This document shows, piece by piece, positions 1 to 56,941 of a stretch of 64,000 nt of DNA. How positions within the stretch are numbered: position 1 is the stretch's first letter; each line of letters starts with the position of its first letter. Position numbers and translations under genes: made by a program. The notes beneath the pieces were generated by a model. That model searched no databases, was not told the origin of the DNA, and was given only the letters and a program-made list of their open reading frames with translations. The stretch comes from an uncultured Dehalococcoidia bacterium (GTDB taxonomy: Bacteria > Chloroflexota > Dehalococcoidia > SZUA-161): contig CAYVQT010000006.1 in assembly GCA_964453665.1 (NCBI GenBank), positions 1,976-65,975 on the forward strand, given 5' to 3'.

Positions 1-150
1 GTAACAGTTGTCATCGTACGGGGCGACCTGGTCGAGAGCCTCCCTGCGGAAAGCCACATTACCATTGGAGAAAAACGGGGAAAGCAACGTATATTTTTCT
101 CTTCTTAAATACCCTTCCTCAAAAAGATTGGACATTATCTGTATTATCAT
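1..150 (-). pseudogene. C-terminal half of a family-2 glycosyltransferase. It lies in a different frame from the N-terminal half (split or frameshifted gene) and runs off the window edge.
   Basis: Hand translation of the minus strand from the ATG at comp(148..150) gives MIIQIMSNLFEEGYLRREKYTLLSPFFSNGNVAFRREALDQVAPYDDNCY... The NxAFRRE..D segment is the part of GT2 enzymes that normally follows the DxD region. The ATG overlaps the TGA of ORF 147..596 (ATGA). This ORF is not in the supplied track. Confidence 0.5.
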
Positions 151-596
151 CGCTTACTATCCGCCCTCTGACCTGAAGTCATATTCTGAATGTAGAAAGC
201 CTCGAGCATATCATCTCCGATCTTAAAATAGGATATCTCTCCTCCCACCACCCCGACATGCGGGTCTTTAATAAAAGGAATCTCCAGTTGCCTCAGCCAG
301 TTTTCATCAGCTACACAATCATCGTCTATGAAGGCAATAATGTCACCCCCGGCGTTCTGAATCCCGGCGTTTCTGGCATGCGGTATACCTCTCTTTGCTT
401 CATAAACGTACTTAAGATTCAGGCTGTCAACGAAATTCAGGGCAATGTCTCTGGTGTGATCGCTGGACGCATTATCAACCACGACCACTTCATCAGGCTT
501 GCGGCTCTGCCTGGTCAGAGAGTCCAGGGTATCCCTCAGAGACTCCGCCCGGTTACGGGTGGCAATTACTACCGAGACAATAAAATTAGTTGCCAT
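147..596 (-). CDS. Family-2 (GT-A) glycosyltransferase, N-terminal half only (149 aa)
   Basis: It has VSVVIATRNRAESLRDTLDSLTRQ and VVVVDNASSD, with AFIDDDC as the DxD motif. It stops where GT2 proteins normally continue. Confidence 0.75.
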   Translation of the reverse strand: MATNFIVSVVIATRNRAESLRDTLDSLTRQSRKPDEVVVVDNASSDHTRDIALNFVDSLNLKYVYEAKRGIPHARNAGIQNAGGDIIAFIDDDCVADENWLRQLEIPFIKDPHVGVVGGEISYFKIGDDMLEAFYIQNMTSGQRADSKR

Positions 597-624
597 GATT
601 TTCCGACCAATCCCTCCAATAGAA

Positions 625-2319
625 TTACATATGCCTTAATAGATCGACCGATTTTGAGAAGAAACGATATGCCTCGCCCTCTTCACCCAGCAACTCCTTT
701 ATATATTCTCTATGCAGGTCATTTAACCAATCTGAATCACCGGGGGAGAACTCGACCAGTGCGTCAAAAATTTGCCTGCTCGTCAGTGGAATACGAATCT
801 CGCCGGATTCCAGAGAGCGGAACAGCAGCTTGGTCCTGGCTGCTCCCCAGAAGAAAGCGAGGAAGTCCAGAGTCCTCATCTTGTATACGTTTCTGCCTGA
901 TATCATGACGTCGATTTTAGCCGTTCTCTTTCTTATCGTTTCCTCAAAGGTATCCGGAGGTAGACAACAACGAATGGGAGTACCATTTTTTTTACGGGCA
1001 ATTTCGAGAGGACTCGATACCATTTCATCCAGCATAGCGAAAAACAACGGGTATTTCCCGGGGCTTTTAACCTTAATGGTGTTAGAGACGCTGTCCGCCT
1101 GCAGCGAAAATGCGATACCACCGTCGGCGACAATGAATGGCTCTATATTCCCGGGGCACAGGCTGCCGCCGAAAAACGAGCGAAAGCCCCTCAGCTTTTC
1201 GATCGGCACATAACCATCCTCTTTTAACACGAGATAGAATGAATCTATGTCAGAATTGGAAAGTACATCCAACTCGAACTCAACCTGCGGGATTAGAGCA
1301 ACAGAGTCCAGATATGGCTCTAACTCGGTTCTAATGATGGTCCCCACTTTGTCAAGTATACCATCGCGTTTAGTATCCGCTATCAGCTCACGACTGCCGG
1401 GGACTCTCGCTATTACCGCTTTGCCCTTCGACCCTGTGTATACCTTGCGCTCCATCTCCGAGTAACTCTTACCAACCATCGTCATAAACAACTTCATCAG
1501 TTCATCCGCTAACACATCCTCGTCTGAAGTTAAATGCCTCAAGAAGCTCTGCACTCTATCAACGTGACAACTTTGTTCATCAGGCAGATGGCTTTTAACC
1601 TGCGACAAAGCGGCATCTCTGCTCTGAGCATCCTCACCGTGGCAAACCAGCAGATAAACCCTGGCTGCCTCGGCAATAGCCTTATACCACAAATACCTTC
1701 TCCTGAATGGAGGACTATAAGTGCCAGATATAAACTCCTCGTTGAGCAGTGCCCACCATTTCCTCAATTCTTCGGTTGCCGGTAGATACAGCTCGGAAGC
1801 TTCGAGCTCCGGAAGCTCACTTACCAGATCCCTGCCGAACAGCAACTTCCACGTATGCTTGCCCTCATTGAACCTGTACCTGTGGAAATCATAGTCCTCA
1901 TACATATCGTAGAACTCTGAGAGGGAATATACCCCGAGTTCCGTGACGCTGCTTGGGAAAAGCGGGATAATACGTGAGAGCTTCTGATAAACTGCCCTGA
2001 CCGTATCTTTCGCTGCCTGCTCTTTCTCGCCCAGATCCGCGATGATTACCGACAGGTCTATGTCACTCAGCCCGTAAACAATCTCCCCCCGGGCGACACC
2101 GCGGCGCAGATAGACCGTTATCACTCCATCCACGCGTCTGAGCAACAGCGAGGCAACCAGGATAGACAGGTCATAGAACTTCCTGTAAAAACAGGTCAGG
2201 GGGAAGAAACTGGTGCCGAGAACTATGCGCTGGATTACGTCCTGGACGCTTGACTTCATGAGCGTATCGTCAGCAATCAGAGGCTGGCTTGCTACCAGAC
2301 AGTATGGTTCGATTAACAA
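625..2319 (-). CDS. Hypothetical 564-aa protein with an N-terminal Pol-beta-type nucleotidyltransferase motif
   Basis: GVARGEIVYGLSDIDLSVII fits the G[SG]-x(n)-D-x-D NTase signature. The rest has no motif I recognise. The start could be the internal MKSS. Confidence 0.45.
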   Translation of the reverse strand: MLIEPYCLVASQPLIADDTLMKSSVQDVIQRIVLGTSFFPLTCFYRKFYDLSILVASLLLRRVDGVITVYLRRGVARGEIVYGLSDIDLSVIIADLGEKEQAAKDTVRAVYQKLSRIIPLFPSSVTELGVYSLSEFYDMYEDYDFHRYRFNEGKHTWKLLFGRDLVSELPELEASELYLPATEELRKWWALLNEEFISGTYSPPFRRRYLWYKAIAEAARVYLLVCHGEDAQSRDAALSQVKSHLPDEQSCHVDRVQSFLRHLTSDEDVLADELMKLFMTMVGKSYSEMERKVYTGSKGKAVIARVPGSRELIADTKRDGILDKVGTIIRTELEPYLDSVALIPQVEFELDVLSNSDIDSFYLVLKEDGYVPIEKLRGFRSFFGGSLCPGNIEPFIVADGGIAFSLQADSVSNTIKVKSPGKYPLFFAMLDEMVSSPLEIARKKNGTPIRCCLPPDTFEETIRKRTAKIDVMISGRNVYKMRTLDFLAFFWGAARTKLLFRSLESGEIRIPLTSRQIFDALVEFSPGDSDWLNDLHREYIKELLGEEGEAYRFFSKSVDLLRHM

Positions 2320-2444
2320 CGTCTGTCAAGGAAACATGCCCCACTACTACATCCCTAACCATCCGGGGCGCTTACATAGGGGCACATTCATCCCCGAGAG
2401 ACCTTCACCATTTTTATCCGACTAGTAAAAAAGCGCAGTCCATA

Positions 2445-2473
2445 TTGCTACACGGCACACCAGATGTTAGAAT
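2445..2473 (+). promoter_or_regulatory. Candidate sigma-70-type promoter for the oligosaccharyltransferase gene
   Basis: TTGCTA (2445-2450), a 17-nt spacer, then TAGAAT (2468-2473). It lies about 100 nt upstream of the ATG at 2577. Confidence 0.45.
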
Positions 2474-2576
2474 CGAGAGGATTTAGCACGCCGGCTGTTC
2501 CCCGGTCTCTCAGCGATATGTAAAGCAAAGTCGAGTGCACGTACGGCGGCGGTAGAGCCTGGCGCAACAGCGAAAG

Positions 2577-4994
2577 ATGAGCAGACTCAGCATTAAGGCA
2601 AAGACATCGGCCAACAGCCTGTACGGACTCGCCCTGGCTCTCCTCATGGGCATCGCTTTCTTCCTGCGTGTTTACTTCCCCTATGATAACGTCTTCACCG
2701 GTGACTGGGTCAGGTTTAAGTGGTTCGATTCATGGTATCATATGCGGCTTGTAGAGAATCTTCTTCATCACTTCCCTCAGCGCATTTACTTCGATCCCTA
2801 TACCCGTTATCCCCAGGGGCAAGACGTATTCTTCGCGCCCTTTTATGACCTGCTCCTCGGCTTTTTCGCATGGGTTGTCGGAGCCGGTTCCCCATCCACG
2901 GGAACTATCGAGACGCTGGGAGCCTATTTCCCGGCAATATTGGGCACACTGGTCACCATACCGGTTTATTTCGTAGGAAAGGAGCTATTCAACAGAAAGG
3001 TAGGGCTGATCGCTGCAGCTTTAGTTATCATACTACCGGGCCAATTCCTGCTGCGCTCACTCCTCGGGTTCACTGATCACCATGTAGCCGAAACCCTGTT
3101 CAGTACACTGACCATGCTGTTCCTGATACTGGCAGTAAAAAGCTCGAAGCAGAAAGAGATCTCCTTCAACAGCCTTTTAACGAGAGACTGGGGAACATTA
3201 AAGAAACCTCTGTTCTACACAGTGCTGACAGGCATATCGCTGGGGCTCTACCTCCTTTCCTGGGTGGGCGGCTTCATTGTTGTATTCGCAATACTACTCT
3301 ATGCTTTCATTCAGTACATGGTCGATCACGCCAGAGGTAGATCAACCGATTACTTATGCATCATCGGCGTGCCCGTCTTCCTCATAACTCTATTGTTTGT
3401 CCTGCCCTTCCTGGGACAATACGGAATGGGTGAAACCCAGATAGCATTCCTGATCATCAGCATGCTGGTGGTTATTGCCCTTAGCGCCTTTTCCCGCCTG
3501 TTCGCCAGGTGGGGTATAAAACGAGCCTACTATCCCGTGGCGCAAATACTTCTGGCAGTCATCGCCTACGGGGTCTTGTACCTTGCGACGCCTTCGCTGC
3601 ACAACATGGTACTGGGCCTGCTCGACTGGCTCAATCCAACCGGATGGCAGCGCACAATCGGTGAGATGATGCCGCTCTCACTATCAATGGTATGGGATGA
3701 ATTCACTACGAGTTTTTACATTGCGCTAATATCACTTGCGGTAATAGCCTACCTGGTCATTAGAGACGGCGCTTCCGATAAAACGCTGCTGCTGGCATGG
3801 AGCATTACCATGCTGGCAGCTACACTGGGGCAGAACCGCTTTGCATACTATTTCGCAGTAAACGCTTCGCTCCTTACCGCCTACCTGGCATGGACAGCTT
3901 TCACGCTTGTTGGCGCCAAGGTGACCTCTGAAATGAGTAGAGGGGAAAACATCGCCGGGAGTGAGAAAGCGGTAACGGGTAAGGACAAATCAAGTAAAAA
4001 GGCAAAGCGTAAAATTGCCAAAGACCCAAGAATGAGACCGGGAACGCTGGTAACAAGATACCCCTTGAGCAGGTATGTCTACAGCGCCGCGGTGGCAATT
4101 GCCATATTCTTTCTGGTGTTCTACCCCAATATCGGGATGGCGATTGACATCGCAAGACAACCCAGCCACCCCAGGCAGGACTGGTACGATGCACTGACCT
4201 GGATGAGAGAGAATACCCCGGACCCCTTCCAGGATGCCGATTTTTACTATGAGCTATACGAAAGGCCACCCGGCGAAGAGGACTACAACTATCCGGAATC
4301 GGCATACGGGGTTATGAGCTGGTGTAACTACGGCCACTGGATTACCTATATCGCTCACCGCATACCAAACGCCAATCCCCACCAGCAAGGCGCGGTGGAG
4401 GCCGCCCATTTTTTCACAACAAATGACATATCCCAGGCAAGTGAACTGCTCGACGAGCTGGGCTCAAGGTACATAATAATAGATATACTCATTGCCCTAC
4501 ATGAGATGCCTACGGAACCCGTCACTTACGGCACTTTCCACGGTGTGATAGAGTGGGCCCGCAGAGACATAAATGACTTCTTTGAGGTGTACTATCAGGA
4601 GACCGAACCGGGGAGCTATAGTTCCATAATGCTGTACTATCCCGAATACTATCAATCTATGAGTTCCAGGCTGTTCAATTTTGAAGCGGAGCAATGGGAC
4701 CCGCAAGAAACCCTCGTCATATCATGGGCTGAGGAAGATTTAACAGGCAGTAAGGGGAACAAGTTCAGGGCAAAGGTTATCACCGACCGCAGGCTGTTTT
4801 ACGACTACAATGACGCTAAAGCATTTATTGATAATAATCCGGGCTACCTGATAGTGGGCGTAAACCAGTTCGTCAGCCCCGTACCTCTCGAGGAAATAGA
4901 GCATTACGAGATGGTTTATGAGACGCCAACAAAGGCAGAGGTCTGGGGAGGTGAAACCGTCTCCACTGTCAGGATATTCGAATATATACCTTAG
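2577..4994 (+). CDS. STT3/AglB/PglB-family oligosaccharyltransferase (archaeal AglB-like), 805 aa
   Basis: There is a multi-TM N-terminal region. Motifs present are FDSWYHMR (first acidic loop), FTDHHVAE (second DxH motif), TIGE (TIXE motif, 3654-3665) and SWCNYGHW in place of WWDYG (4320-4334). A soluble C-terminal domain follows. Confidence 0.85.
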   Translation: MSRLSIKAKTSANSLYGLALALLMGIAFFLRVYFPYDNVFTGDWVRFKWFDSWYHMRLVENLLHHFPQRIYFDPYTRYPQGQDVFFAPFYDLLLGFFAWVVGAGSPSTGTIETLGAYFPAILGTLVTIPVYFVGKELFNRKVGLIAAALVIILPGQFLLRSLLGFTDHHVAETLFSTLTMLFLILAVKSSKQKEISFNSLLTRDWGTLKKPLFYTVLTGISLGLYLLSWVGGFIVVFAILLYAFIQYMVDHARGRSTDYLCIIGVPVFLITLLFVLPFLGQYGMGETQIAFLIISMLVVIALSAFSRLFARWGIKRAYYPVAQILLAVIAYGVLYLATPSLHNMVLGLLDWLNPTGWQRTIGEMMPLSLSMVWDEFTTSFYIALISLAVIAYLVIRDGASDKTLLLAWSITMLAATLGQNRFAYYFAVNASLLTAYLAWTAFTLVGAKVTSEMSRGENIAGSEKAVTGKDKSSKKAKRKIAKDPRMRPGTLVTRYPLSRYVYSAAVAIAIFFLVFYPNIGMAIDIARQPSHPRQDWYDALTWMRENTPDPFQDADFYYELYERPPGEEDYNYPESAYGVMSWCNYGHWITYIAHRIPNANPHQQGAVEAAHFFTTNDISQASELLDELGSRYIIIDILIALHEMPTEPVTYGTFHGVIEWARRDINDFFEVYYQETEPGSYSSIMLYYPEYYQSMSSRLFNFEAEQWDPQETLVISWAEEDLTGSKGNKFRAKVITDRRLFYDYNDAKAFIDNNPGYLIVGVNQFVSPVPLEEIEHYEMVYETPTKAEVWGGETVSTVRIFEYIP

Positions 4995-4999
4995 CAGCT

Positions 5000-5031
5000 C
5001 CGCCTCTACTACTGAACATGGATAGAGGCGG
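5000..5031 (+). terminator. Hairpin just after the OST stop codon (weak terminator candidate)
   Basis: CCGCCTCTA (5000-5008) pairs with TAGAGGCGG (5023-5031), giving a 9-bp stem. There is no clear T-tract afterwards. Confidence 0.3.
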
Positions 5032-5087
5032 CAACCCGTTTACAACTCTAACCCTTTTACACATCGAATCTTCCATAAGGAACAACT

Positions 5088-6368
5088 TTGAACATTACAC
5101 AGCTAAGGCGCCAGATTCAGGACCCTTTATACCGTAATTCTCTACTCCTTATGGTCAATACCGCCGTGACTACCGGAATGGGCTTTATATTCTGGATGGT
5201 AGTTGCGAGGTATTACACAGAGTATGAAGTGGGCCTGGCGGCTGCAATCATATCAGCCATCAGCCTGCTAGCTCTGATTAGCAGCCTCGGTCTGGATGTT
5301 GCTCTAATCCGCTTCCTCTCCAAAGCCAGGGAACCCGTGAAGATGATCAACTCCTGCTTCACCATAAGCGGAATCGTAGCCCTCGCAGTAGCAGGCATCT
5401 TCCTCGCTGGCCTGGACCTGTGGTCTCCGGCCACCGAATTCGTAAGGGGTAATATCAGGTTCCTTTTGGCCTTCATTCTCTTCGTTGTCTGCTGGCCCCT
5501 GTCGGGGCTCATGGCGTCCGTATTCGTAGCAGGGCGAAGAGCCGAATTTGTTCTGGTTAAAAGCACCATCTTTTCGCTGCTTAAAATCCCTCTCCCGATC
5601 CTCCTGGCCTATTACTTTCATGCCTTTGGCATCGTGGGCTCGTGGGGCGTCGCCGCAGTTGCAGCCTTCATCATTTCCCTTTTCCTCTTTATACCACGTA
5701 TTCAAAAATCATACAGGCCAGTGCCCAGGCTTGACTTGAGCATAATTCGGGACATCTGGAAATACTCCGCAGGCAACTACTTTGTCTCCATTTTCGCGGC
5801 AGCACCCTACTTCCTCTTGCCGATCATAGTAGTAAACCTTATCAGTGCGGAGCAGAACGCCTACTTCTATGTAGCGTGGATGATGGCCGGGCTGGTCTAT
5901 GCTATACCCGTAGCTGTTTCCGCATCTTTGTTCGCCGAGGGCTCGCATGCTGAAGAAGCACTGGTCGCTAATGCACGCAGGTCTTTCCGCTTCATCATCC
6001 TGTTGCTGGTGCCAGCCATCATTCTTCTGGTCGCCCTGGGTAAATGGCTCCTGTTACTGTTCGGTGAGAACTACTCGTCTAATGGCCTGACATTATTATG
6101 GATTCTAGGCGCTTCGGGCCTATTCATAGCGGTAAACGACGTTTACTATAGCATCCTGCGCGTGCGGGGCAGAATCCGGGAACTCTTTTTTATCCGAGCA
6201 CTGATATCCATTGCCGTGGTTGTTGCAGGCAGCCTCATTGCGCCAAAGATAGGAATTGTGGGCATTGGCTACGCCTGGATCTCGGCACAGGCGGTCGCCA
6301 GCATCTACGTCCTGCTAAGAGTGAGGGTGCGCTACCGCGCAATGAAGGCTCAGCGTATTGATAGTTGA
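5088..6368 (+). CDS. Wzx-like oligosaccharide/polysaccharide flippase (MOP superfamily)
   Basis: It is 426 aa and highly hydrophobic with about 12 predicted TM stretches. The N-terminus (RNSLLLMVNTAVTTGMGFIFWMVVAR) is typical of polysaccharide-biosynthesis flippases. Its context also fits. Confidence 0.75.
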   Translation: MNITQLRRQIQDPLYRNSLLLMVNTAVTTGMGFIFWMVVARYYTEYEVGLAAAIISAISLLALISSLGLDVALIRFLSKAREPVKMINSCFTISGIVALAVAGIFLAGLDLWSPATEFVRGNIRFLLAFILFVVCWPLSGLMASVFVAGRRAEFVLVKSTIFSLLKIPLPILLAYYFHAFGIVGSWGVAAVAAFIISLFLFIPRIQKSYRPVPRLDLSIIRDIWKYSAGNYFVSIFAAAPYFLLPIIVVNLISAEQNAYFYVAWMMAGLVYAIPVAVSASLFAEGSHAEEALVANARRSFRFIILLLVPAIILLVALGKWLLLLFGENYSSNGLTLLWILGASGLFIAVNDVYYSILRVRGRIRELFFIRALISIAVVVAGSLIAPKIGIVGIGYAWISAQAVASIYVLLRVRVRYRAMKAQRIDS

Positions 6369-6514
6369 CGTTATCGCGAATACAGTCAACCAAGTCACCG
6401 TAGTTACCCTGTCCCGTCTATGGTTCCAGGCATCGGTATCAATATCGCGATACTCTGCAAGTTACCCATGCCATACTCCTGTCCTCAGCCGCTAAGATGT
6501 CCGTCCACAAGTGG

Positions 6515-7720
6515 TTACTGCTCTGTCTTACTCAACGCTTTGTTGTAGACCTCTACAACCCTGTCAACCCATTCAGGTATGGAGAATTCGGCTTCCACGA
6601 GTTCACGGTTAGTCTTTGCCGCCAGTTTCTTATCATCATCACTCAGCGACAGCAGCCTTATAACGGCTTCAGCAAGTCCGCCAATATCACCGGGAGGCAC
6701 CATGATACCGCCTGTGCCATCGAGCCCCAGTTCAGGGGCCAGCCCCGTGGCTGTCGCGACAACGGGCCTGCCACAGGCCATTCCCTCCAGAACGACCAGC
6801 CCAAATGACTCGTGAAGCGAGGGTATCACCAGCAGGTCACATGCCGAGTACAGCTTGATAAGCTCATCCTCCGGTAAAAAATCGATGAACATCATATGGT
6901 CTCCGAAACCATCATCTTCCGCTTGCTTACGTATATGAGCCTTCACAGAGCCGTTAAAAGGAGCGCTGTTCGTATCCCGACCCACCAGGACAAACCTGGT
7001 CGCAGGAATAGTTCTAATAATCCCGGGGATGGCCCGGCAAAGTATGTGAACGCCCTTTCTCGCCTCCAGCCTGCCCACGAATAAAACCAGCGGAGTGTTC
7101 CGGGGTATTTCAAGCCTCTCCCTTATATCAGATTCAACGTAGCTGTATTTCGCAGCATCCACAGAGTGGTGAACAACTTCAATTTTTTCAGGGTCGATAC
7201 GCAGCTTTTCAATCAACGGCGCACACTGTCCCTTTGTGGTCGCCACTACACGGTCTGCCCGTCTGGCGCTGAAATCCTCCAGGAAAGAGAGGATTTTGAG
7301 ACTCACCTGCTCCTTTATCCCGGAGTATGTTCCCGTCCTTAAAACGTCTGACGCCGATGAAGCGACCCTGACCGCTAATGGTGTGCGTCTACTTAAACCA
7401 TAGAGAAGGGCTTCAGCCCCCCAGTAGGCTGCTTCCACTATCTCTATGTCATACCGCTTGATGATTTCCCGCAGCTTGAGCCAGGCATGGAAGCTATAGT
7501 TAATTCGCGCCACGGCGCTATAACGCTTCGGGTTCGTTCCCACCCTGTGAACCAGGACTCCGTTATCTATCAAGTCTCCAGGAGTATCTACCGCCTGGCA
7601 GACTACATGAACCTCGTGACCCCGCCGGGCTAAGGCAGAGGCCAGGCTATAGTACATTGCCGCAATCCCGCCCCATGCCGTATCGGGGGGGTACTCCCGT
7701 GAAAGAAAAGCCACTCTCAC
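6515..7720 (-). CDS. GT4-family (GT-B) glycosyltransferase
   Basis: MRVAFLSREYPPDTAWGGIAAMYYSLASALARRGHEVHVV is present, with the C-terminal ESFGLVVLEGMACGRPVVAT motif (E-x7-E region). Confidence 0.85.
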   Translation of the reverse strand: MRVAFLSREYPPDTAWGGIAAMYYSLASALARRGHEVHVVCQAVDTPGDLIDNGVLVHRVGTNPKRYSAVARINYSFHAWLKLREIIKRYDIEIVEAAYWGAEALLYGLSRRTPLAVRVASSASDVLRTGTYSGIKEQVSLKILSFLEDFSARRADRVVATTKGQCAPLIEKLRIDPEKIEVVHHSVDAAKYSYVESDIRERLEIPRNTPLVLFVGRLEARKGVHILCRAIPGIIRTIPATRFVLVGRDTNSAPFNGSVKAHIRKQAEDDGFGDHMMFIDFLPEDELIKLYSACDLLVIPSLHESFGLVVLEGMACGRPVVATATGLAPELGLDGTGGIMVPPGDIGGLAEAVIRLLSLSDDDKKLAAKTNRELVEAEFSIPEWVDRVVEVYNKALSKTEQ

Positions 7721-7789
7721 TATATCAACTCGTTATCGATTCGAAAAACGAACCGGCTAACAAGGCTGTGATTATCCCTTTTCTTTTCA

Positions 7790-8809
7790 TCAACAACCTG
7801 CCACTTCCTCAATAAGCCCTATCCAGTCCGACTCAAATCTTTCCACCGTGAAATCTTTAGCAAACTCATACCCCCTCTCACCCAGTTCGGGATGCTCCAG
7901 CGCGTATTCAACACATTTCCTCAACTCACCGAAACCCGGACAAACAATCTGCCGGCCACCATCAAGAAGTTCCTTCATTCCGCACACCCCAGAACCAACT
8001 ACCGTAGTCTTGCAAAGCATAGCTTCGTGGGCAGTCCTGCTCCAGCCTTCCTTGAGCTTCGACATCGTGACAACAACCGAAGACGCCTTAAGAAGTCTCT
8101 GATAATCGCGGTAATCAAGGCTTAAATTCATCGCCGGTATATTCACTTTCTTATCACCGCTGGTCACGAGATTCAGGTCCATGCCCTTCAGATGCTTATA
8201 TGCTTCGACAACACCCTTACCTCTTTGACAATTCCCAATATATACAATGGGCTTCCCTGCGAGGCCATATTTACGAACAAAATCCGCGATTTCCTGTTCC
8301 GTGAATGTGAAGCTGGCTACATCAAAGGGATTGTAGATAACCCTTACATCGGGATGGCCCTTCGCTTCAAAGTGCGCTTTCCAATACTTCGACACTGTGA
8401 CTACCGCATCGACCCTATTAAGGTTACGATAGAAAAGCCTCTCCAGTAAGTAACCCTTCCCAAGCAGGAGCGTACTAAGTACAGGCTCGTATGTATCTCT
8501 AGTATCAATGTGATGTATTAGCAGGATGTTCTTGCCAACCGTCCTATCTAACGGCAGGGTTATCGTGGATAGAAACCCTCTAATCCATATGTCGTTAACA
8601 CCCCTGAGCCCGAAGAGTCTGCAAGCCAGCCTCGTGCGTTGAAACAGCCAGTTTCCTTTGCCCAGAAGTATCCCCAACGGTTCAACGTTAAATCTCTTGC
8701 CCAGCGCCTCTAAAAGGAATCTCCGGTAGAGGTCGCCACCGCTTTCTACTCTCCACGGGGAACCTCTCGGACATTCAACGTCGGCAATATTCAACGCGGG
8801 GTTTACCAT
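7790..8809 (-). CDS. GT-B fold glycosyltransferase (GT1/GT4-like)
   Basis: The C-terminal EGWSRTAHEAMLCKTTVVGSGVCGMKELL resembles the nucleotide-sugar-binding segment of GT4 enzymes. Confidence 0.7.
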   Translation of the reverse strand: MVNPALNIADVECPRGSPWRVESGGDLYRRFLLEALGKRFNVEPLGILLGKGNWLFQRTRLACRLFGLRGVNDIWIRGFLSTITLPLDRTVGKNILLIHHIDTRDTYEPVLSTLLLGKGYLLERLFYRNLNRVDAVVTVSKYWKAHFEAKGHPDVRVIYNPFDVASFTFTEQEIADFVRKYGLAGKPIVYIGNCQRGKGVVEAYKHLKGMDLNLVTSGDKKVNIPAMNLSLDYRDYQRLLKASSVVVTMSKLKEGWSRTAHEAMLCKTTVVGSGVCGMKELLDGGRQIVCPGFGELRKCVEYALEHPELGERGYEFAKDFTVERFESDWIGLIEEVAGC

Positions 8810-8823
8810 GATGCAACCAGTGG

Positions 8824-9771
8824 TTATAGCGGTCTTTTACGACCCGCAACGCGCTCTCCAGCATACCCACAAACAAACCCAAGGCCTACGCTCACAATGG
8901 AAGCGACAAGGACCGCAAGTTTCTTCAGTTCCTCTACGCGATAGAGGCGCTTCATCCTAAGTGGGATGTACTTCACGAGCAGTATCCTGAGATAAGACTT
9001 CTCCGTAGCCATCGAGTCAGCCGAGACATTCAGCTTGCTCAGCAAAGCCTTTGAGTACCCCTGATAGAAAGACCTCCCTAAAAGAACCCTGATACCTAAT
9101 TTCGATTTCGGGACTCTGTGATAGACAATGGCATGCGGATTATATATGACACCTTTGCCTAGAGTCCGCTTCATCTTCAAGGCCAACTCCGGTTCCTCGG
9201 CCTGTATATAGGAGGCTCCCCTTCTGGCAAAGCCGAGGCTTTCGTTGAATCCGCCCACCTTATCGAAAACCTCCCTTTTAAAACTCATGTTCGGCCCAAA
9301 TGTGTTGCGTACTTCGACGACTTCCTCCCCGGCGAAGCCATCATGGGTTACGCCAACCAGCCAGTACAGCTCCTCCGGCAAATAGTCCGGTTTCTTATCA
9401 AGCCAGACGGGCAAGACCTTCCCTCCAACTGCAACAGCGTCGTAATCCAGGTAGGTACTCAGGAGGTTCTCAATCCAATGTCTCTCCGCGACAGCATCAT
9501 CGTCCATGAAAGCGATAATTTCGCCCCGTGCAATCCCGACACCGGCATTCCTCGCTGCAGAAACACCTGCGTTATCCTTCAAGAGTACAGTCCTCACGGT
9601 TTCCCGGCCGCCGTAATCCGACGTAACTTTACTGTAGAATTCCTTGTTGCCATCAATAGCTATGATAACCTCTAATTCTCGATGGGTTTGCTCCAGCAGG
9701 CTATTCACAGCCCCGACGAGGTTCTGATAGTTTTCGGGGCTATGGGCGCATATGACAGTGGATACCAACAT
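8824..9771 (-). CDS. Family-2 glycosyltransferase with a C-terminal membrane anchor
   Basis: VSTVICAHSPENYQNLVGAVNSLLEQT, AFMDDD (DxD) and NMSFKREVFDKVGGFNE are present, followed by a hydrophobic tail. Confidence 0.85.
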   Translation of the reverse strand: MLVSTVICAHSPENYQNLVGAVNSLLEQTHRELEVIIAIDGNKEFYSKVTSDYGGRETVRTVLLKDNAGVSAARNAGVGIARGEIIAFMDDDAVAERHWIENLLSTYLDYDAVAVGGKVLPVWLDKKPDYLPEELYWLVGVTHDGFAGEEVVEVRNTFGPNMSFKREVFDKVGGFNESLGFARRGASYIQAEEPELALKMKRTLGKGVIYNPHAIVYHRVPKSKLGIRVLLGRSFYQGYSKALLSKLNVSADSMATEKSYLRILLVKYIPLRMKRLYRVEELKKLAVLVASIVSVGLGFVCGYAGERVAGRKRPL

Positions 9772-9789
9772 GATTATGTCAAGATTTCG

Positions 9790-10476
9790 CTATCTGTGAC
9801 GAAACCTACGCCTCACAAGCGTCCTCCCAATCCTAAACCCATCTCTCAAAGAGTTTAACTTGGTGCGGGTCCCCCTCCTCCTGTAGTCAATGGGCACCTC
9901 TGTTATCCTGTAACCATTCCTTGCTATTTCCGTCAACATATTTACCTCGATGTCGAACCCTCTGGCCTCCAGTTTCAACTGCTTGACTACCTCCGCTCTC
10001 AGACCCCAGCAGCCGGTGCAGGGATCGCTTATTTTTGTCCCGTACAAAACGTTAGTCATCAGAGCCAGCAAATGGTTACCTACCAGGTTCAGAGGAGTCA
10101 TCGCACCCTCAGCCATACAACCCCTCAACCTGGAACCCATCACCACGTCGCATCCTTCTTCCAGAATCTCAAGCATCTGCGGTATGTGGCCAGCCGGATA
10201 AGTATAGTCCGAATCTAATATAAATGCGTAATCGCAGCTCATGGCCTCAAATCCAGCCCTAATAGCCATCCCCTTCCCCCTCCTCGGCTCCCAGATAATC
10301 CGTGCACCTTTCTCCCTGGCAACCTCCTCAGTCCTGTCATTACTTCCATTGTTGACCACCATGACATCTACCTTGTAGCCCCTCCCCTCCATCTCTTTCA
10401 CAGGTATCTCATCTATGACCATACCTATAGTGCCCTCCTCATTAAGAGCAGGCAGGATTACGCAGACTTCCTTCAT
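9790..10476 (-). CDS. Polyprenol-phosphate hexose synthase-like GT2 (DPM1/AglD/AglJ-like)
   Basis: It is 228 aa. VILPALNEEGTIGMVIDEI, VVNNGSNDRT and ILDSDYTYP are present, with the compact DPM1-like size. Confidence 0.85.
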   Translation of the reverse strand: MKEVCVILPALNEEGTIGMVIDEIPVKEMEGRGYKVDVMVVNNGSNDRTEEVAREKGARIIWEPRRGKGMAIRAGFEAMSCDYAFILDSDYTYPAGHIPQMLEILEEGCDVVMGSRLRGCMAEGAMTPLNLVGNHLLALMTNVLYGTKISDPCTGCWGLRAEVVKQLKLEARGFDIEVNMLTEIARNGYRITEVPIDYRRRGTRTKLNSLRDGFRIGRTLVRRRFRHR

Positions 10477-10705
10477 TAAACGATTATCCTTTCACATGCT
10501 GGCCTTCAGCATTCTCATAGCACGAACCCGAACTGATGGCCCTGACCCGAATTGTAATACACTTGTAATATCTTCGCAATTTTTCATCCATACCCTTTAT
10601 CGTTTCTTAATATTCTGCATTTATACTTCAAGCAATGACGGCAGGGTTTTATAAATCACTTACACTCCAGCACTAAGAGACGGTGATGTAATTCGCCTCC
10701 AGTGT

Positions 10706-11242
10706 ATGGCGGAAAATTACCGTCATGTGTCCAGAGATTCAAGTAGGACGATGGTCATCACACATAAGCCAGGGAGGGGAGGGGACAAAGCGGATATGAA
10801 CGAATTGGAGACCGCCAAAAACACACTGGAAAGGGTAATGAGCAATCAGGATGAAATAACGAGGCTTACAGACAACCAGATAGACCTGCTGATCCGGGTA
10901 GCGCTGGGCAAAACCAATTCGCAGATAGCAGACGAGCTTTGTTTACAGGAACAGACCGTAAAGAACAGGGTCACCAGACTGCTGAAGAAGCTGCACGTGG
11001 ATAACAGGGTGCATATAGCGACCTTCGCCTGTTTGGGATACCCGCCGTCGGAATCACAACTAAGGTTCCGTTGGAGAGACCTCAATAAAAAGGCCGTATC
11101 CTCTGGCAACTCAAGCCATCTTAAGATTAGCAGCAGTTATAATCAGCATTTGCGCATACAGCCCCGAAGACGCAACGTCAGAACCCTGGAAACACAGAAG
11201 CTGCTTGGCCTGCGCAATAAGACCACTTCCACGAATAGATAA
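10706..11242 (+). CDS. LuxR/GerE-type HTH transcription regulator (start uncertain; ATG 10796 is possible)
   Basis: LTDNQIDLLIRVALGKTNSQIADELCLQEQTVKNRVTRLLKKLHVDNRVHIA is a canonical GerE HTH. A low-complexity tail of about 70 aa follows. Confidence 0.7.
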   Translation: MAENYRHVSRDSSRTMVITHKPGRGGDKADMNELETAKNTLERVMSNQDEITRLTDNQIDLLIRVALGKTNSQIADELCLQEQTVKNRVTRLLKKLHVDNRVHIATFACLGYPPSESQLRFRWRDLNKKAVSSGNSSHLKISSSYNQHLRIQPRRRNVRTLETQKLLGLRNKTTSTNR

Positions 11243-11545
11243 CGTTAATCCCCACCCCTAATTGTTCTTCCGTGTCAATGAATTATAGCTTAGAGATTCG
11301 GAATGCTTCTTTATCTGAGTCTTTCCAACAATCGCTAAACGGGACTATTAATCAATACAGCACGCAGTTTTTATAATACCTCTGCACATTATTTCTATCA
11401 TTTTTCCCCGTAGAACTCTTGTGTTACGGTACATATCGCAGTAGAATATCGCAATAAATTCGCTTTATATAAGCGTATTATTAATAAGGTATAATCGGGA
11501 GGCAGGGCAAGTAAACGCCTCAACATGACAAAAGGAGGGTTTGCT

Positions 11546-12652
11546 GTGAAGAAGATAGAGGTAAATGCAATCAGAGTCTCGAGCCAAACCTGTATAGTTG
11601 AAATGCCGGGCGAAGTCACAGATTACGATGAGTCCCCTATTGTTAAAGCCTGCGAGCAGGCAGTTCCGGGTAATCTGAGAAACGTTATCCTGGACTTCAG
11701 CTCCGTGAGGAAAATGAACGGGCTTGGGGCAAGCATGCTTGTCAAATTAAGCGCTGAAGCCAGGAATCGAGGACAAAAAACATCGGCGTTCAACCTCAGC
11801 GATCATTACAGGGGCGTTTTTCAAATTACCGGTTTGTACAGGACCGTCCACGTTCACCAAAGCAAGGAGCAGGCATTAACGGCAGCTGGAGAGCTTTCAA
11901 CCGTTTCCACCCTGGATAGACCGGAAGGGACTAAGGAAGTCAATACAGATGACATAGCTAGCTGGTCGGAACCAGTCTCTGAAATCAGAGTCCCCGACAT
12001 GCCCGCCGAAGCTGTTAATTTAAACGTCGAGGGGCTACGTCCCGTTGGACCGGTTGAAGGATTCGGCCAGATGTGGCAGAAGATATATCGACAGCGTCTC
12101 ACGGGCATAAACATCGAACCCGGTGAGGCCCTGAGGGTTCTCAAGGAGAATTTCCCGAACTTTCAACCAGCCGAAAATCGTTTTTATCCCTCGGCAGCCG
12201 GTATACAGCCGGGAGAGGTAGTGCTTATTAACTCTTCGACCCCCGGCGGGCCTATATACACAGGGGTCTTAGTGCTCTATTCCGATGATGAATCATTTAC
12301 CTTCATAACTCCCCAGGGACATCCCGAGTCGGGATGGGTCTCTTTTAACGCATATGACGAAGATGGAGCCACCATCGTGCAGATTCTTGGCCTGGCACGC
12401 GCTAACGACCCCGTATACGAGGCGGCGTTTCGTTTAGCAGGTGCCAGGGTTCAGGAGAAAATATGGCGACACGTATTATCCTCCATGGCCAGCCATCTCA
12501 GCGTGCAGCCGGACGTAGAAGTGCAGAAAATCTGCGCAGATACCAAATTGCAGTGGTCCGGAATAAAAAATATATGGTATAACGCCCAGATTCGCAGCAT
12601 GGTCTACACGATGGTTGCTCCACTGCGCTGGGTCCGCAGAACACTGAAGTAA
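11546..12652 (+). CDS. STAS-domain protein fused to a C-terminal domain of about 230 aa and unknown function (possibly DUF1990-like)
   Basis: NVILDFSSVRKMNGLGASMLVKLSAEARNRGQK resembles SpoIIAA/STAS. The GTG at 11546 sits 7 nt after AAAGGAGGG. The track ORF starts at 11525. Confidence 0.6.
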   Translation: MKKIEVNAIRVSSQTCIVEMPGEVTDYDESPIVKACEQAVPGNLRNVILDFSSVRKMNGLGASMLVKLSAEARNRGQKTSAFNLSDHYRGVFQITGLYRTVHVHQSKEQALTAAGELSTVSTLDRPEGTKEVNTDDIASWSEPVSEIRVPDMPAEAVNLNVEGLRPVGPVEGFGQMWQKIYRQRLTGINIEPGEALRVLKENFPNFQPAENRFYPSAAGIQPGEVVLINSSTPGGPIYTGVLVLYSDDESFTFITPQGHPESGWVSFNAYDEDGATIVQILGLARANDPVYEAAFRLAGARVQEKIWRHVLSSMASHLSVQPDVEVQKICADTKLQWSGIKNIWYNAQIRSMVYTMVAPLRWVRRTLK

Positions 12653-12671
12653 CAAATCACATCGTTGCAAT

Positions 12672-14102
12672 ATGGCAAAGAAGAGTGAGTACGATGCAGT
12701 AGTCGTTGGTTCGGGACCGAACGGTCTCGCTGCCGCCATAACACTGGCCCAAAAAGGGCTCTCTACAATCGTTCTGGAAGCCAGGGACACTGTAGGCGGC
12801 GGTACTCGAACGGCGGAGCTTACTCTGCCTGGATTTCTTCACGATATTTGCTCGGCAATACATCCCCTGGGGGCCAGTTCACCGTTCTTTTACCCATTAA
12901 GCCTTAAAGATTATGGACTTGAGTGGATTTATCCCCGGGCTGCGCTTGCACACCCCCTTGACGACGGAACAGCTATTCTGCTCGAGAGAAGTATCGAGGA
13001 AACAGCACAATCACTGGGCGCAGACAGCGCATCATATAAAAAGGTGATGGAACCTTTAATCAAAGACTGTGACAGGATAATCAGAGACCTGTTAAGGCCC
13101 TTAAGCTTCCCCAGTCACCCAATCTCATTTATTAAGTTCGGCCGGTATGCTTTCCGGTCAGCGTACGGATTAGCGAACAGCCTGTTTCAGGAAGAGCGCG
13201 CTAAGGCATTGTTTGCAGGTTTGGGTGCGCATTCAATTATGCCTCTGGAACGACATTTCACGGCATCCTTCGCTCTCATGCTTGGCTCACTGGGGCACGC
13301 TGTCGGCTGGCCCGTAGCTAAGGGAGGCTCTCAACTAATCGCCGACGCACTGGCAGAATACCTGCGTTCGCTTGGAGGCCACATAGAAACGGGCACCCTT
13401 ATTCAATCACTGGATGATTTGCCGAAGGCAAGAGCTACTCTATTTGACATCACTCCCCGACAATTCACACGGATTGCGGGACAGAGATTAAGCAGCAGAC
13501 ATCTAAAAGGCTATCGCAATTTTAAATACGGGCCAGGCGTATTTAAGATTGATTGGGCATTGGACCGCCCAATTCCATGGAAAGCATCGGAATGCGCTTC
13601 GGCTGCTACCGTTCATATAGGTGGTACGTTAGAGGAGATAGCAGCATCTGAAGACGCTGTATGGAGGGGGGATAATCCCGAGAGGCCATTCGTTATCCTC
13701 GCCCAGCAAAGCTTATTCGACCCTACAAGGACGCCGGATGGCAAACATACAGCCTGGGCGTACTGCCATGTACCAAACGGCTCCACTTTTAGTATGACCG
13801 AACGAATTGAGGCCCAGGTAGAACGATTTGCGCCCGGATTCAGCGAGATTATACTCGCAAAGCATATAATGAACCCATCCGATTTTGAGGAATATAACCC
13901 TAACTACAAAGGAGGAGACATCGCAGGCAGGACTCAGGACTTCTGGCAAATATTCGCCAGACCAGCTTTAAGACTTAAGAGCCCGTATGCTACTCCAGTT
14001 AAAGGACTCTACCTGTGTTCCTCATCTACACCGCCGGGCGGTGGTGTACACGGTATGTGCGGGCACTATGCAGCGTTAGCGGCGCTTCGTGACATTCATT
14101 AA
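12672..14102 (+). CDS. FAD/NAD(P)-dependent oxidoreductase of the phytoene-desaturase (CrtI-like) family
   Basis: YDAVVVGSGPNGLAAAITLAQKG is the dinucleotide-binding motif. The length (476 aa) and the C-terminal GGGVHGMCG are typical. Confidence 0.8.
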   Translation: MAKKSEYDAVVVGSGPNGLAAAITLAQKGLSTIVLEARDTVGGGTRTAELTLPGFLHDICSAIHPLGASSPFFYPLSLKDYGLEWIYPRAALAHPLDDGTAILLERSIEETAQSLGADSASYKKVMEPLIKDCDRIIRDLLRPLSFPSHPISFIKFGRYAFRSAYGLANSLFQEERAKALFAGLGAHSIMPLERHFTASFALMLGSLGHAVGWPVAKGGSQLIADALAEYLRSLGGHIETGTLIQSLDDLPKARATLFDITPRQFTRIAGQRLSSRHLKGYRNFKYGPGVFKIDWALDRPIPWKASECASAATVHIGGTLEEIAASEDAVWRGDNPERPFVILAQQSLFDPTRTPDGKHTAWAYCHVPNGSTFSMTERIEAQVERFAPGFSEIILAKHIMNPSDFEEYNPNYKGGDIAGRTQDFWQIFARPALRLKSPYATPVKGLYLCSSSTPPGGGVHGMCGHYAALAALRDIH

Positions 14103-14176
14103 TCCGGACAAAAAGAAGGTTTATACATGGATATCCGATCTTCATATCGAATCGCGATGTATAAATGCTCGCTTAT

Positions 14177-14620
14177 TCAGTCAGGATAAAGCTCCCAGAC
14201 ATCTTTAAAGCTGCTTATAACATATTTTTTTATTACTATTCTAATTAGAGCGTTATCCGGGGAATCGACGAAATTTACCAGATTGGGATGTTTCTTGAGG
14301 TATATCTTTGCCAGATTATCCCTGTCAACGCCCCGGGCTTCCGTTGCCCTGCCAATAGCAGTTACTGCCACAGCGCGCTCAAAATCAGACTCCATATTCG
14401 ATCTGTTATCTATCAATATGGAGACCCGGGGATTGGCCTTTAACTCATTATATTTACGCGTGGAACGTGACGTAGAGAACAGCAAATCTTTAAGGTCTAC
14501 CGTACCGGCTATCGCCACCAGACAATTATAAGGTTGTTCGTCCTTTTGTGTCGCTAAAACGGCCAGCTTCTGCGAAACAAGCAACTTCCTTATTCTGTCG
14601 CTCAGTTGTGACTTATTCAT
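14177..14620 (-). CDS. Pyridoxamine-5'-phosphate-oxidase-fold (FMN-binding split barrel) family protein
   Basis: It is 147 aa. LAVLATQKDEQPYNCLVAIA...KANPRVSILIDN is a pattern typical of PNPOx-like proteins. Confidence 0.6.
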   Translation of the reverse strand: MNKSQLSDRIRKLLVSQKLAVLATQKDEQPYNCLVAIAGTVDLKDLLFSTSRSTRKYNELKANPRVSILIDNRSNMESDFERAVAVTAIGRATEARGVDRDNLAKIYLKKHPNLVNFVDSPDNALIRIVIKKYVISSFKDVWELYPD

Positions 14621-14965
14621 ATCACCTCCAATGGACTATTGGAATATATCGATAAATATATAATAAGCAATTCCTGCATGGCTATAAATTCATACGCCCC
14701 GACAATCTATCGTATAGCAACCAGCTACAAGCGATTTCAAATCTATACAGCACTTGTGAATAATAACCGGCTCACCATTATTCTACCATTTCTGAGTTGC
14801 AACCGTTCTTTTTTAAATACAACAAAATGCCCAGGCTCGATGCCCGGAGGGCTTTTTTATATCCCCAGAAAAAAGCTGGGTTCCCAAACGGTGTTGACAA
14901 ATGGAATGCTAGAGCATAGCTTATTGGAATCACGGAATATTACATCGAGAAAGGAAAAGTTTAAC

Positions 14966-15430
14966 ATGCTTCTTCATCATGTTGCCATAAGCGTACAGGA
15001 CATAGAAAAGTCACTCGTGTTCTACAGAGATGCGCTGGGACTGACTGTATTCCAGGATGAAGTAATCTCAGGCCTCGACGTCGATACCGGTCTTATGGAG
15101 AAATATGCCAGGGTCCGCATGGTCCTACTGATGGATGAAGCAGGAAATATGATTGAATTACTCGACTGGCAGTCGCCGACTGTAAGAGAAAGACCGTATG
15201 AGCATAGGAATTTCACTTCAACCGGTCTGGTGGAGGTATGTTTTATGGTACCCGACCTGCAGAAGGTCGAGAAGGACCTTTTAAGAAACGGTTTCAGCTT
15301 CAGGACTCCGGTCTGGCCATTCGGTAAGGATACCGGAACCTATGGGGGAGGTTACGCCGCAATCAGATATGCGGAGGACCCCAATGGAGTGAATGTTGAA
15401 TTTATACAGGTCGTCGAAGCCGCTAAATAA
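14966..15430 (+). CDS. VOC/glyoxalase-family protein
   Basis: MLLHHVAISVQDIEKSLVFYRDALGLTV is present. The ATG at 14966 is preceded by AAGGAAA. The 109-codon upstream extension in the track lies in an AT-rich, non-coding-looking region. Confidence 0.75.
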   Translation: MLLHHVAISVQDIEKSLVFYRDALGLTVFQDEVISGLDVDTGLMEKYARVRMVLLMDEAGNMIELLDWQSPTVRERPYEHRNFTSTGLVEVCFMVPDLQKVEKDLLRNGFSFRTPVWPFGKDTGTYGGGYAAIRYAEDPNGVNVEFIQVVEAAK

Positions 15431-15461
15431 TGTAACCTCTGCACCTGCGGGACTTCAATAA

Positions 15462-16154: not shown

Positions 16155-16212
16155 CCGCTCGTACAGACGCAAAGTGTGATGTTTTTGGAGGCTTTCATCC
16201 CCCTCCCTCTAA

Positions 16213-16235: not shown

Positions 16236-16245
16236 GAATAATACC

Positions 16246-16485: not shown

Positions 16486-16489
16486 TCGA

Positions 16490-56940: not shown

Positions 56941-56941
56941 T

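Follow-up and report, generated by a model that had tools for sequence, protein, structure and literature searches.

A putative Agl-like glycosylation locus with an AglB-family oligosaccharyltransferase in an uncultured Dehalococcoidia bacterium

En bloc glycosylation by STT3-family oligosaccharyltransferases (OSTs) is a known kind of system, and to our knowledge bacterial N-glycosylation by this family has been established experimentally almost only for PglB of Campylobacterota and some Desulfobacterota. Dehalococcoidia reportedly lack peptidoglycan and carry an S-layer. Among archaea, Haloferax volcanii assembles its glycan on dolichol monophosphate with AglJ, AglG, AglI and AglE, AglB transfers it, and the agl cluster runs from aglJ to aglB (PMC5867893). 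Here we analyze a 64,000-nucleotide stretch of DNA from an uncultured Dehalococcoidia bacterium (contig CAYVQT010000006.1, positions 1,976 to 65,975; hereafter the window), in which the gene for an AglB-type OST lies among putative glycan-assembly genes. An initial annotation had described 625-10476 as a locus of the N-glycosylation type in a bacterial genome, with an archaeal AglB-like OST at its center. The match to family TIGR04154, the best match to AglB-L of Archaeoglobus fulgidus (AfAglB-L) and bacterial markers in the window uphold that view; of the proposed extent, 2577-10476 stands as the core, and 625-2319 belongs to a separable module.

Open reading frames (ORFs) of the window were listed and scanned against Pfam and NCBIfam with curated cutoffs. 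Related loci are denoted by L-numbers, and neighborhood and residue counts cover 83 of them. By analogy with Haloferax we propose, with a probability of about 0.6, that 2577-10476 would encode a euryarchaeal-type (Agl-like) pathway for lipid-linked glycan assembly and en bloc transfer to protein Asn, with an altered acceptor rule. The core locus consists of genes for AglB, Wzx, two GT4 enzymes, an AglG-like GT2 and an AglJ-like GT2, given here with the intergenic region that precedes them:

2320-2576, no strand: divergent intergenic region between a nucleotidyltransferase-like gene and aglB, with a promoter-like site inside
2577-4994, + strand: AglB-type OST, 805 amino acids (aa), a GT-C protein of the STT3 family
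5088-6368, + strand: candidate flippase of the Wzx/MOP type, 426 aa (PF01943, PF13440)
6515-7720, - strand: GT4 (GT-B) glycosyltransferase, 401-aa ORF (PF00534 at 127 bits, PF13439)
7790-8809, - strand: divergent GT4-like GT-B glycosyltransferase, 339 aa (PF13439, PF13692, PF00534)
8824-9771, - strand: AglG-like GT2, 315 aa (NF041394)
9790-10476, - strand: AglJ/Dpm1-like polyprenyl-phosphate glycosyltransferase, 228 aa (TIGR04182, NF041391)

Both ends of the core locus (AglB-Wzx and AglG-like-AglJ-like) are conserved, and the glycosyltransferase genes between them differ from genome to genome. Like the H. volcanii agl cluster, the locus is bounded by aglB and an aglJ-like gene, encodes a membrane protein of the Wzx/AglR type and carries no phosphoglycosyltransferase (PGT). 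It differs in that its GT2 proteins score below the equivalog cutoffs, extension would be by GT4 enzymes and not by AglI/AglE orthologs, and no AglD/AglS-type outside step was identified here. With Campylobacter pgl it shares a single-subunit STT3-family OST encoded in a bacterium within a glycan-assembly cluster. However, PglB gave no sequence match to this OST at E ≤ 1, and the pocket of the clade is of the DK type where that of PglB is of the MI type. There is also no PglC-type primer here, and the carrier is probably a monophosphate, whereas pgl uses undecaprenyl diphosphate; the flippase candidate is Wzx-type, in contrast to PglK of Campylobacter pgl, which is an ABC-type flippase. The OST family itself is already present in public databases, auto-named by NCBI and JGI, and is not newly seen, only unstudied. 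What is new is the expansion of Dehalococcoidia OSTs into paralog classes and, as the sequences suggest, an archaeal-style pathway, probably monophosphate-based, that has become fixed in a bacterial class, and an OST under selection with a rewired Ser/Thr pocket.

The AglB-family oligosaccharyltransferase and its catalytic residues

By family and by fold, the 805-aa protein is an STT3/AglB-family (GT66) OST. It matched Pfam STT3 (PF02516) at 113.7 bits (cutoff 24.5), AglB_core (PF22627) at 83.8 bits (cutoff 27) and NCBIfam TIGR04154, titled 'oligosaccharyl transferase, archaeosortase A system-associated', at 657 bits (cutoff 450) with an alignment over residues 19-805. When the protein was compared with all PDB sequences, the only strong matches were A. 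fulgidus AglB proteins, with AfAglB-L at the top (7e-81 with the single sequence, 4e-108 with a 12-sequence profile; 36% identity across 562 aligned residues), and human STT3B matched at 1e-16. The AlphaFold (AF2) model of the OST (pLDDT 85.8, pTM 0.85) likewise had AfAglB-L as its best fold match (E 2e-35, TM 0.71), followed by eukaryotic STT3A/B (~1e-18 to 1e-13) and PglB (~1e-11).

The protein consists of a transmembrane domain (about aa 1-515) and a globular, soluble C-terminal domain (aa 516-805). Four motifs were located: FDSWYHMR (aa 50-57), TDHHVAE (aa 166-172), TIGE (aa 360-363) and WCNYG (aa 582-586). The OST hallmarks that had been listed earlier are therefore present for the first three motifs and the soluble domain, and the WWDYG position proved to be non-canonical. 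Mapping of residues by alignment to AfAglB-L (3WAJ/5GMY) gave the following equivalents:

2727-2729, + strand: D51, equivalent to AfAglB D47 of the first acidic catalytic motif, kept
3075-3080, + strand: D167-H168, equivalent to AfAglB D161/H162 of the metal site, kept
3654-3665, + strand: TIGE, the TIXE motif of external loop 5, with E363 equivalent to AfAglB E360, kept
3837-3839, + strand: R421, equivalent to AfAglB R426 of the phosphate site, kept
residue Q603: equivalent to AfAglB Q571 of the peptide site, kept

The D51 equivalent occurs in all complete sequences of 84 family members, three fragments being without the region, and T360-I-G-E363 aligns with TIAE of AfAglB. The AfAglB mutants D161A and H162E have <3% activity left, and R426A has 1.2% (PMC8342417 Suppl. 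Data 3). Judged from the alignment, the OST retains an intact metal site, phosphate site and TIXE motif. The position of AfAglB H81 is occupied by Phe. Overall, the OST has the same catalytic residues as AfAglB-L (3WAK, 5GMY, 7E9S), namely the equivalents of D47, D161/H162, E360, R426 and Q571, and differs from it in its bacterial host, in WCNYG for WWDYG, in Thr for K618 and in an extra Lys-rich loop. This loop of about 45 disordered residues (aa 451-496, window 3927-4064; pLDDT <50) precedes the last transmembrane helix and contains KDKSSKKAKRKIAKDPR; it is conserved in the clade with the consensus KKAKRKK, and the stretch between the corresponding aligned blocks is shorter in AfAglB-L, at about 27 residues.

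The Ser/Thr acceptor pocket

The Ser/Thr pocket is built from the WWDYG and DK motifs (PMC8342417, PMC3703281), with a contribution from the DK-motif Lys (PMC3703281). Both motifs are changed in the OST described here:

4320-4334, + strand: WCNYG for WWDYG, with W582-C583-N584 equivalent to AfAglB W550-W551-D552, one wall of the Ser/Thr pocket
4482-4547, + strand: degenerate interrupted DK motif, D636-I-L-I639 ... G652-T653-F-H-G-V657, with T653 equivalent to AfAglB K618

The DK-motif Met position is I639. Most of the Dehalococcoidia clade carries D-x-x-M ... G-K-F-Y-A-M at this motif, or more generally an interrupted D-x-x-M-(3 to 13 residues)-G-K-[FY]-Y-A-M, which aligns gap-free to AfAglB D611...K618-YYAM. 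W-W-D was found at the WWDYG position in 115 of 121 homologs and in 75 of the 83 related GTDB loci, and the DK-motif Lys in 89 of the 121 homologs. Among the latter, only the query and orthologs at least 79% identical to it have WCNYG. In the nearest ortholog group (L007-L010) the DK Lys is already missing and WWDYG is retained; WWDYG is also retained in the positional orthologs with the same neighbors (L004, L007, L008, L013).

Against two 79%-identical orthologs, dN/dS of the OST was 0.18 overall and 0.15-0.17 in the C-terminal domain, and the WCN codons differ synonymously across three lineages. Because dN/dS is low (~0.18) and the WCN codons hold synonymous differences, the gene does not appear to be decaying. 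By this codon evidence, the WCNYG variant is maintained by purifying selection and is neither an error nor the product of gene decay. We suggest that the OST is a homolog with a non-canonical acceptor pocket, for which canonical N-X-S/T glycosylation is not assured, and that, compared with N-X-S/T, the OST of this lineage probably has a changed or looser acceptor rule.

The genomes of the L007-L010 orthologs also hold a canonical paralog (WWDYG ... GKFYAM; L015, L017, L018, L024). It has been proposed that OST paralogs of one organism share one pocket type (PMC3703281), and the occurrence of Lys-less and canonical paralogs in single genomes contradicts this rule. Four sets of loci from the same metagenome-assembled genome (MAG), L007/L018, L008/L015, L010/L017 and L009/L016/L024, each combine a Lys-less paralog (N, D, H or Y at the Lys position) with a canonical Lys-type paralog.

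A wider reading, which is possible and which we put forward tentatively, is that Dehalococcoidia may have class-wide euryarchaeal-type N-glycosylation, with a monophosphate carrier, an AglJ-type start and several OST paralogs per genome, and that the ComEC-linked paralog of this lineage may have acquired an acceptor rule of its own. Of the four residues by which the pocket recognizes the +2 Ser/Thr, three would then have been exchanged (W-C-N plus Thr), with canonical paralogs remaining alongside in those genomes. If true, this OST would naturally use a sequon that differs from N-X-S/T, and it would be an exception to the shared-pocket-type rule for OST paralogs (PMC3703281). The remodelled pocket amounts to a naturally occurring test of how sequons are read by OSTs, and such an OST could give new specificity for glycoengineering.

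Alternatively, the OST here might mainly hydrolyze lipid-linked glycan to free oligosaccharide, or use a non-peptide acceptor, with N-glycosylation performed by the canonical AglB paralog. AfAglB D552A keeps only 2.6% of OST activity, with free-glycan release still at 53% (PMC8342417 Suppl. Data 3), and therefore the natural D-to-N and W-to-C changes could cripple peptide glycosylation. The query has N at D552, C at the second Trp and T at the DK Lys, its closest relatives' genomes hold the second, canonical paralog named above, and persistent purifying selection implies that some function is retained. However, Asp to Asn is a far milder change than Asp to Ala, with hydrogen bonds still possible, and AfAglB K618A keeps 66% of OST activity (PMC8342417 Suppl. 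Data 3). Additionally, Q603 (Q571 in AfAglB) is intact, as is the TIXE motif, which pairs with the acceptor backbone, and WWDYG in the same-neighbor orthologs L004, L007, L008 and L013 suggests a role in protein glycosylation for the locus. We consider hydrolysis or a non-peptide acceptor unlikely as the main activity of this OST.

Glycan assembly and gene arrangement

In the proposed Agl-like pathway, the AglJ/Dpm1-like GT2 would load the first sugar onto polyprenyl monophosphate at the cytoplasmic face and the AglG-like GT2 would add the second. The two GT4 enzymes would then extend the glycan, in a middle block that is variable between genomes, the Wzx-like protein would flip the lipid-linked glycan to the outer face, and the AglB-type OST would transfer it onto Asn of exported envelope proteins. 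We infer the step order, the monophosphate carrier, the protein Asn acceptor and the altered specificity.

A DPM1/AglD-like polyprenol-phosphate hexose synthase had been listed, and the best matches of the 228-aa GT2 are AglJ and Dol-P-hexose transferases. The top NCBIfam match of this GT2 was TIGR04182 (AglJ) at 185 bits, below the cutoff of 325, with an alignment to positions 1-216 of 293 and the C-terminal part absent; it also matched the haloarchaeal Dol-P hexose transferase NF041391 at 135 bits, carries DSD at aa 88 and has no transmembrane helix. This protein is probably the initiating enzyme, a candidacy based on its family matches. The 315-aa GT2 matched NF041394 (AglG_Halo) over its full length (1-303 of 304) at 332 bits, below the cutoff of 440, and has a DDD motif at aa 90 and one C-terminal transmembrane helix. 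Identity of 61-71% is kept in its positional orthologs, and JGI labels its homologs 'glucosyl-dolichyl phosphate glucuronosyltransferase', making it a candidate transferase of the second sugar, perhaps a hexuronic acid, acting on a lipid-linked hexose. In at least 18 loci from different paralog classes an AglJ-like GT2 gene lies beside AglB, often 44-470 bp downstream, and the AglB-adjacent GT2s elsewhere also have AglJ as best match (140-157 bits), with PpgS next.

No PGT of PF00953 or PF02397 was found among window ORFs of at least 150 aa or among the locus ORFs, in agreement with the initial annotation, nor was a PGT among the gene families that recur in at least 4 of the 83 related loci. 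By analogy with Haloferax, the glycan is probably started on polyprenyl monophosphate by the AglJ-type GT2 and not by the product of a missing primer gene; with such a start a PGT would not be needed. The carrier in a bacterium is more likely to be of the undecaprenyl type than dolichol. Genes for UDP-glucose dehydrogenase, sugar nucleotidyltransferases and epimerases recur near AglB in related loci.

The Wzx-like flippase gene that had been noticed directly after the OST gene is confirmed as a candidate by matches to PF01943 (39.8 bits, cutoff 28.2) and PF13440 (28.5 bits, cutoff 23). Its product is polytopic, with 11 strongly hydrophobic segments, and a Wzx-like gene lies directly 3′ of AglB in 19 related loci. 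The two GT-B transferases also hold, as the GT4 genes at 6515-7720 and 7790-8809. For the former the public gene call is shorter (380 aa, start at 7657); for the 339-aa product of the latter, the matches to PF13439, PF13692 and PF00534 are weak yet above cutoff. This 339-aa protein has no homolog in the related loci and therefore belongs to the variable block. The count of two or three GT2 transferases corresponds to genes at 8824-9771, 9790-10476 and 147-596, the last of which, at 149 aa, is the N-terminal half of a split GT2 rather than a whole enzyme.

The genes at the locus form three co-oriented blocks. A promoter-like site with an extended -10 is present at 2445-2473 (+) as a consensus match only, and promoter matches in 2320-2576 as a whole are not enriched over shuffled sequence. 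Promoter and terminator scans of 1-11600 resembled those of shuffles as well (21 vs 13.5 ± 4.3 and 12 vs 9.4 ± 3.1, respectively). Because these scans were no better than shuffles, the three transcription units proposed earlier reduce to the three blocks of shared gene orientation.

Besides the activity loss of AfAglB D552A, several points weigh against an Agl-like pathway with transfer to protein. The AglJ-like and AglG-like proteins, being below the equivalog cutoffs, are relatives and not proven orthologs of the Haloferax enzymes; the role of the AglJ-like enzyme could instead be to provide one lipid-linked sugar for decoration on the outside, as AglD does, and a PGT could be encoded elsewhere in the genome, beyond the 72.5-kb contig. 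In 1.32 Mb (window and related loci) no acceptor or S-layer gene was found, and none of the 1381 ORFs there has a C-terminus with PG[FYLW] plus a hydrophobic tail. Neither an archaeosortase nor a PGF-CTERM partner, with which OSTs of TIGR04154 are associated, was seen in the window and related loci. Full-text literature searches returned no study of a Dehalococcoidia OST, the matches being reference-list co-mentions, which agrees with the earlier remark that the lineage is essentially unstudied; the open literature only speculates on S-layer glycosylation in Dehalococcoidia.

It is also conceivable that 5088-10476 holds Wzx-dependent genes for a surface polysaccharide or glycolipid, with AglB adjacent and not functionally coupled. 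Wzx, GT2 and GT4 proteins are generic components of polysaccharide loci, and the block between Wzx and the AglG-like gene is variable between genomes. However, a variable middle block is typical of N-glycan clusters too (PMC5867893), and neither a Wzy polymerase nor a chain-length regulator nor a priming PGT is encoded in the window. The two GT2 enzymes are specifically similar to those that start the Haloferax N-glycan, and the recurrence of AglB-Wzx adjacency (19 loci) and of AglJ-like GT2s near AglB (at least 18 loci across paralog classes) argues for coupling, making an independent polysaccharide locus rather improbable.

Bacterial host, origin and neighboring genes

The rest of the window is bacterial, as initially described, with ComEC, ComEA, a bacterial DnaB helicase, DnaC/IstB-like and DnaD-like proteins and ribosomal protein L9. 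The window lies within a 72.5-kb metagenome contig that was recovered in both JGI and ENA assemblies, and it has no sharp GC break. The order AglB-Wzx-...-AglG-like-AglJ-like-ComEC is the same in L004, L007, L013 and L037, and the contigs of L004 and L013 measure 1.35 and 1.75 Mb. Among the best 120 OST homologs (48-79% identity), those named are 'Dehalococcoidia bacterium' or 'Chloroflexi bacterium'. GTDB species genomes contain at least 212 related OST loci, with up to three copies per genome, as found by a scan with clade-specific patterns that placed archaeal OSTs outside its reach; of the best 80 of these 212 loci, 79 are in MAGs labelled Chloroflexota/Dehalococcoidia and 1 in a MAG labelled Actinomycetota. 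In this last locus (L065, CAYHAT010000036.1) the OST is 46% identical in the alignment and 40% in the best tblastn segment, and its label could stem from mis-binning of the contig or its presence from one more transfer.

An assembly or binning chimera of an archaeal fragment with bacterial DNA would account for the archaeal-family matches (TIGR04154, AglJ-like, AglG-like) and for an HdrA2-type gene elsewhere in the window. Against this stand the recovery of the same contig by JGI and ENA, the presence of the ComEC/ComEA-linked locus on the two megabase-scale contigs and in other Dehalococcoidia/Chloroflexota MAGs, the labels of 79 of the best 80 loci and the lack of a GC discontinuity, which leave such an origin barely credible. 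Because the locus order, including ComEC, recurs in independent Dehalococcoidia assemblies, the chimera that the initial annotation had raised as a concern is effectively excluded. An ArnT- or PMT-type GT-C enzyme for lipid A modification or O-mannosylation can be dismissed as next to impossible, since the protein groups with AglB/STT3 and shares with those enzymes the general GT-C fold, seen as distant matches to DPY19 (~1e-9) and PMT4 (~1e-5), whereas no ArnT or PMT chain matched at E ≤ 1 in the PDB profile search, no PMT, PMT_2 or ArnT family matched in Pfam or NCBIfam, the protein carries the TIXE motif specific to OSTs as well as an AglB core domain, and the AfAglB-L fold match is at least 24 orders of magnitude better than that of PMT.

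AfAglB-L is 28-37% identical to clade members, and the most divergent members of the clade share about 40% identity with the query. The interrupted DK type has been described for Halobacteria, Archaeoglobi and Methanomicrobia (PMC3703281). The sequence comparisons fit an old acquisition from archaea of this type, followed by duplication within Dehalococcoidia. The archaeal origin is drawn from family models, motif type and PDB ranking, and the neighbor-joining tree had a single archaeal sequence. For the AglG-like GT2, the 120 matches listed all belong to the same uncultured clade (59-98% identity), with no archaeal neighbors among them. Lombard (2016) inferred at least two archaea-to-bacteria OST transfers (PMC4973528), and the OST described here is probably separate from the PglB lineage, representing an independent acquisition from archaea.

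Archaellum clusters are inferred to have been transferred from Methanotecta archaea to Dehalococcoidia/Anaerolineae in a study that reports O-glycosylation of bacterial archaellin and does not mention an OST (Nat Microbiol 2025, PMC12488501). The two cases share the recipient class, the archaellum donor group is compatible with the interrupted DK motif, and both are archaeal cell-surface systems in a single-membrane, S-layer bacterium. No archaellum genes are present in the 64-kb window, and a link between the two transfers is speculation. If active, the proposed pathway would explain how Dehalococcoidia build an archaeal-like glycoprotein envelope, and it would be a second, independent archaea-to-bacteria move of a whole surface system, besides archaella from the same archaeal kind.

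Other genes recur beside AglB in the related loci. A rhomboid intramembrane protease gene adjoins it in 15 of the 83 loci (e.g., L060 364-972, - strand), apparently mostly in a large OST group that is 37-47% identical to the query, and deletion of a rhomboid protease in Haloferax reportedly affects S-layer N-glycosylation. A DUF1616 (PF07760) membrane protein, of a family that Pfam describes as archaeal, adjoins AglB in 8 Dehalococcoidia loci (L005 12424-13269, L006 4799-5647 and L024 9104-9952 among them) and may be another archaeal-type AglB partner. A distinct OST paralog class (L006, L014, L020-L023, L026, L027) has PDYH, PDQH or PEYH in place of TDHH at the second metal-binding motif, with Tyr or Gln at the equivalent of AfAglB H162, where H162E leaves 1.5% activity (PMC8342417 Suppl. 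Data 3). An AglJ-like GT2 typically lies directly 3′ of this class, and DUF1616 together with a PilT-sized ATPase lies upstream in several loci.

The left edge of the window holds the following genes:

625-2319, - strand: nucleotidyltransferase-like protein by AF2 fold, 564-aa ORF
147-596, - strand: N-terminal, nucleotide-sugar-binding half of a GT2, 149 aa (PF00535 positions 1-120 of 168)
1-150, - strand: C-terminal half of the GT2, with the remainder off the window (L001 1519-2214)

The 564-aa ORF likely starts at M21, near 2259, giving a protein of about 545 aa. It had no Pfam or NCBIfam match, and its 78 homologs (~545 aa) share an invariant G83-S85-D86-D88. In its AF2 model (pLDDT 85.4) the N-terminal half adopts an ANT(3″)(9)/AAD(9)-type nucleotidyltransferase fold (E 7e-5, TMt 0.58), and the C-terminal half had no structural match. 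The nucleotidyltransferase motif reported earlier is thus supported for the N-terminal half, and the gene itself belongs to a module that is also found away from AglB. A 535-aa protein without a Pfam match near AglB in L005 was considered and is not related to it. The ~545-aa protein is always followed by a two-ORF GT2 and then by radical-SAM/SPASM or Gfo/Idh/MocA genes; the arrangement is present without AglB within 8 kb in L087 and L088, and 1-2319 is therefore a separable module and not an obligate part of the OST locus. To the left of the window, the contig continues for 2,064 bp with the GT2 C-terminal half, a Gfo/Idh/MocA oxidoreductase and a 91-aa ORF. Copies of the module lie at 625-2319 (-) and leftwards in the window, L087 8001-15993, L088 8001-15253 and L004 4773-9771. 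The module may include one to three radical-SAM/SPASM enzymes, which matched no curated NCBIfam family, a ~340-aa protein without a family and nearby ORFs of 43-53 aa, and it could be a pathway for small-molecule or peptide modification.

The split GT2 is found at 1-596 (-) in the window, L001 1519-2660, L004 6974-8115, L087 9648-10796 and L088 9750-10788; its N-terminal half measures 112-149 aa, and the C-terminal one, about 231 aa long, has 3 hydrophobic segments. In the window the start of the C-terminal half overlaps the stop of the N-terminal half by 4 nt (ATGA), and relatives have an overlap or a short gap. Both halves match MftF-type GT2, the C-terminal one at positions 229-307. A frameshifted pseudogene was rejected as an explanation for the 149-aa GT2, the two-ORF split being kept in L004, L087 and L088 at ~50-67% identity, and this conservation makes the split GT2 a genuine pair of genes rather than a frameshift artifact.

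Between the AglJ-like gene and ComEC, 10706-17164 holds ~6.7 kb of extra genes, which encode a LuxR-type regulator, STAS-DUF1990, FAD oxidase, PNPOx-like, glyoxalase and racemase proteins and a 224-aa unknown. L007 is without them, with ComEC ~0.6 kb downstream of the AglJ-like gene, and the LuxR regulator could control the adjacent locus. Further along, 45860-48334 (+) encodes an archaeal-type HdrA2 (CoB-CoM heterodisulfide reductase; 1189 bits, curated cutoff 1100), whose neighbors at 40706-44233 and 44718-45863 are HdrA/GltD-fusion and CCG-domain (HdrB/D-like) genes, together an oxidoreductase block. A tyrosine recombinase of the XerC/D or phage-integrase type is encoded at 28786-29727 (-), and two adjacent tRNA-Ser genes with anticodons CGA and GGA lie at 56854-57029 (+).

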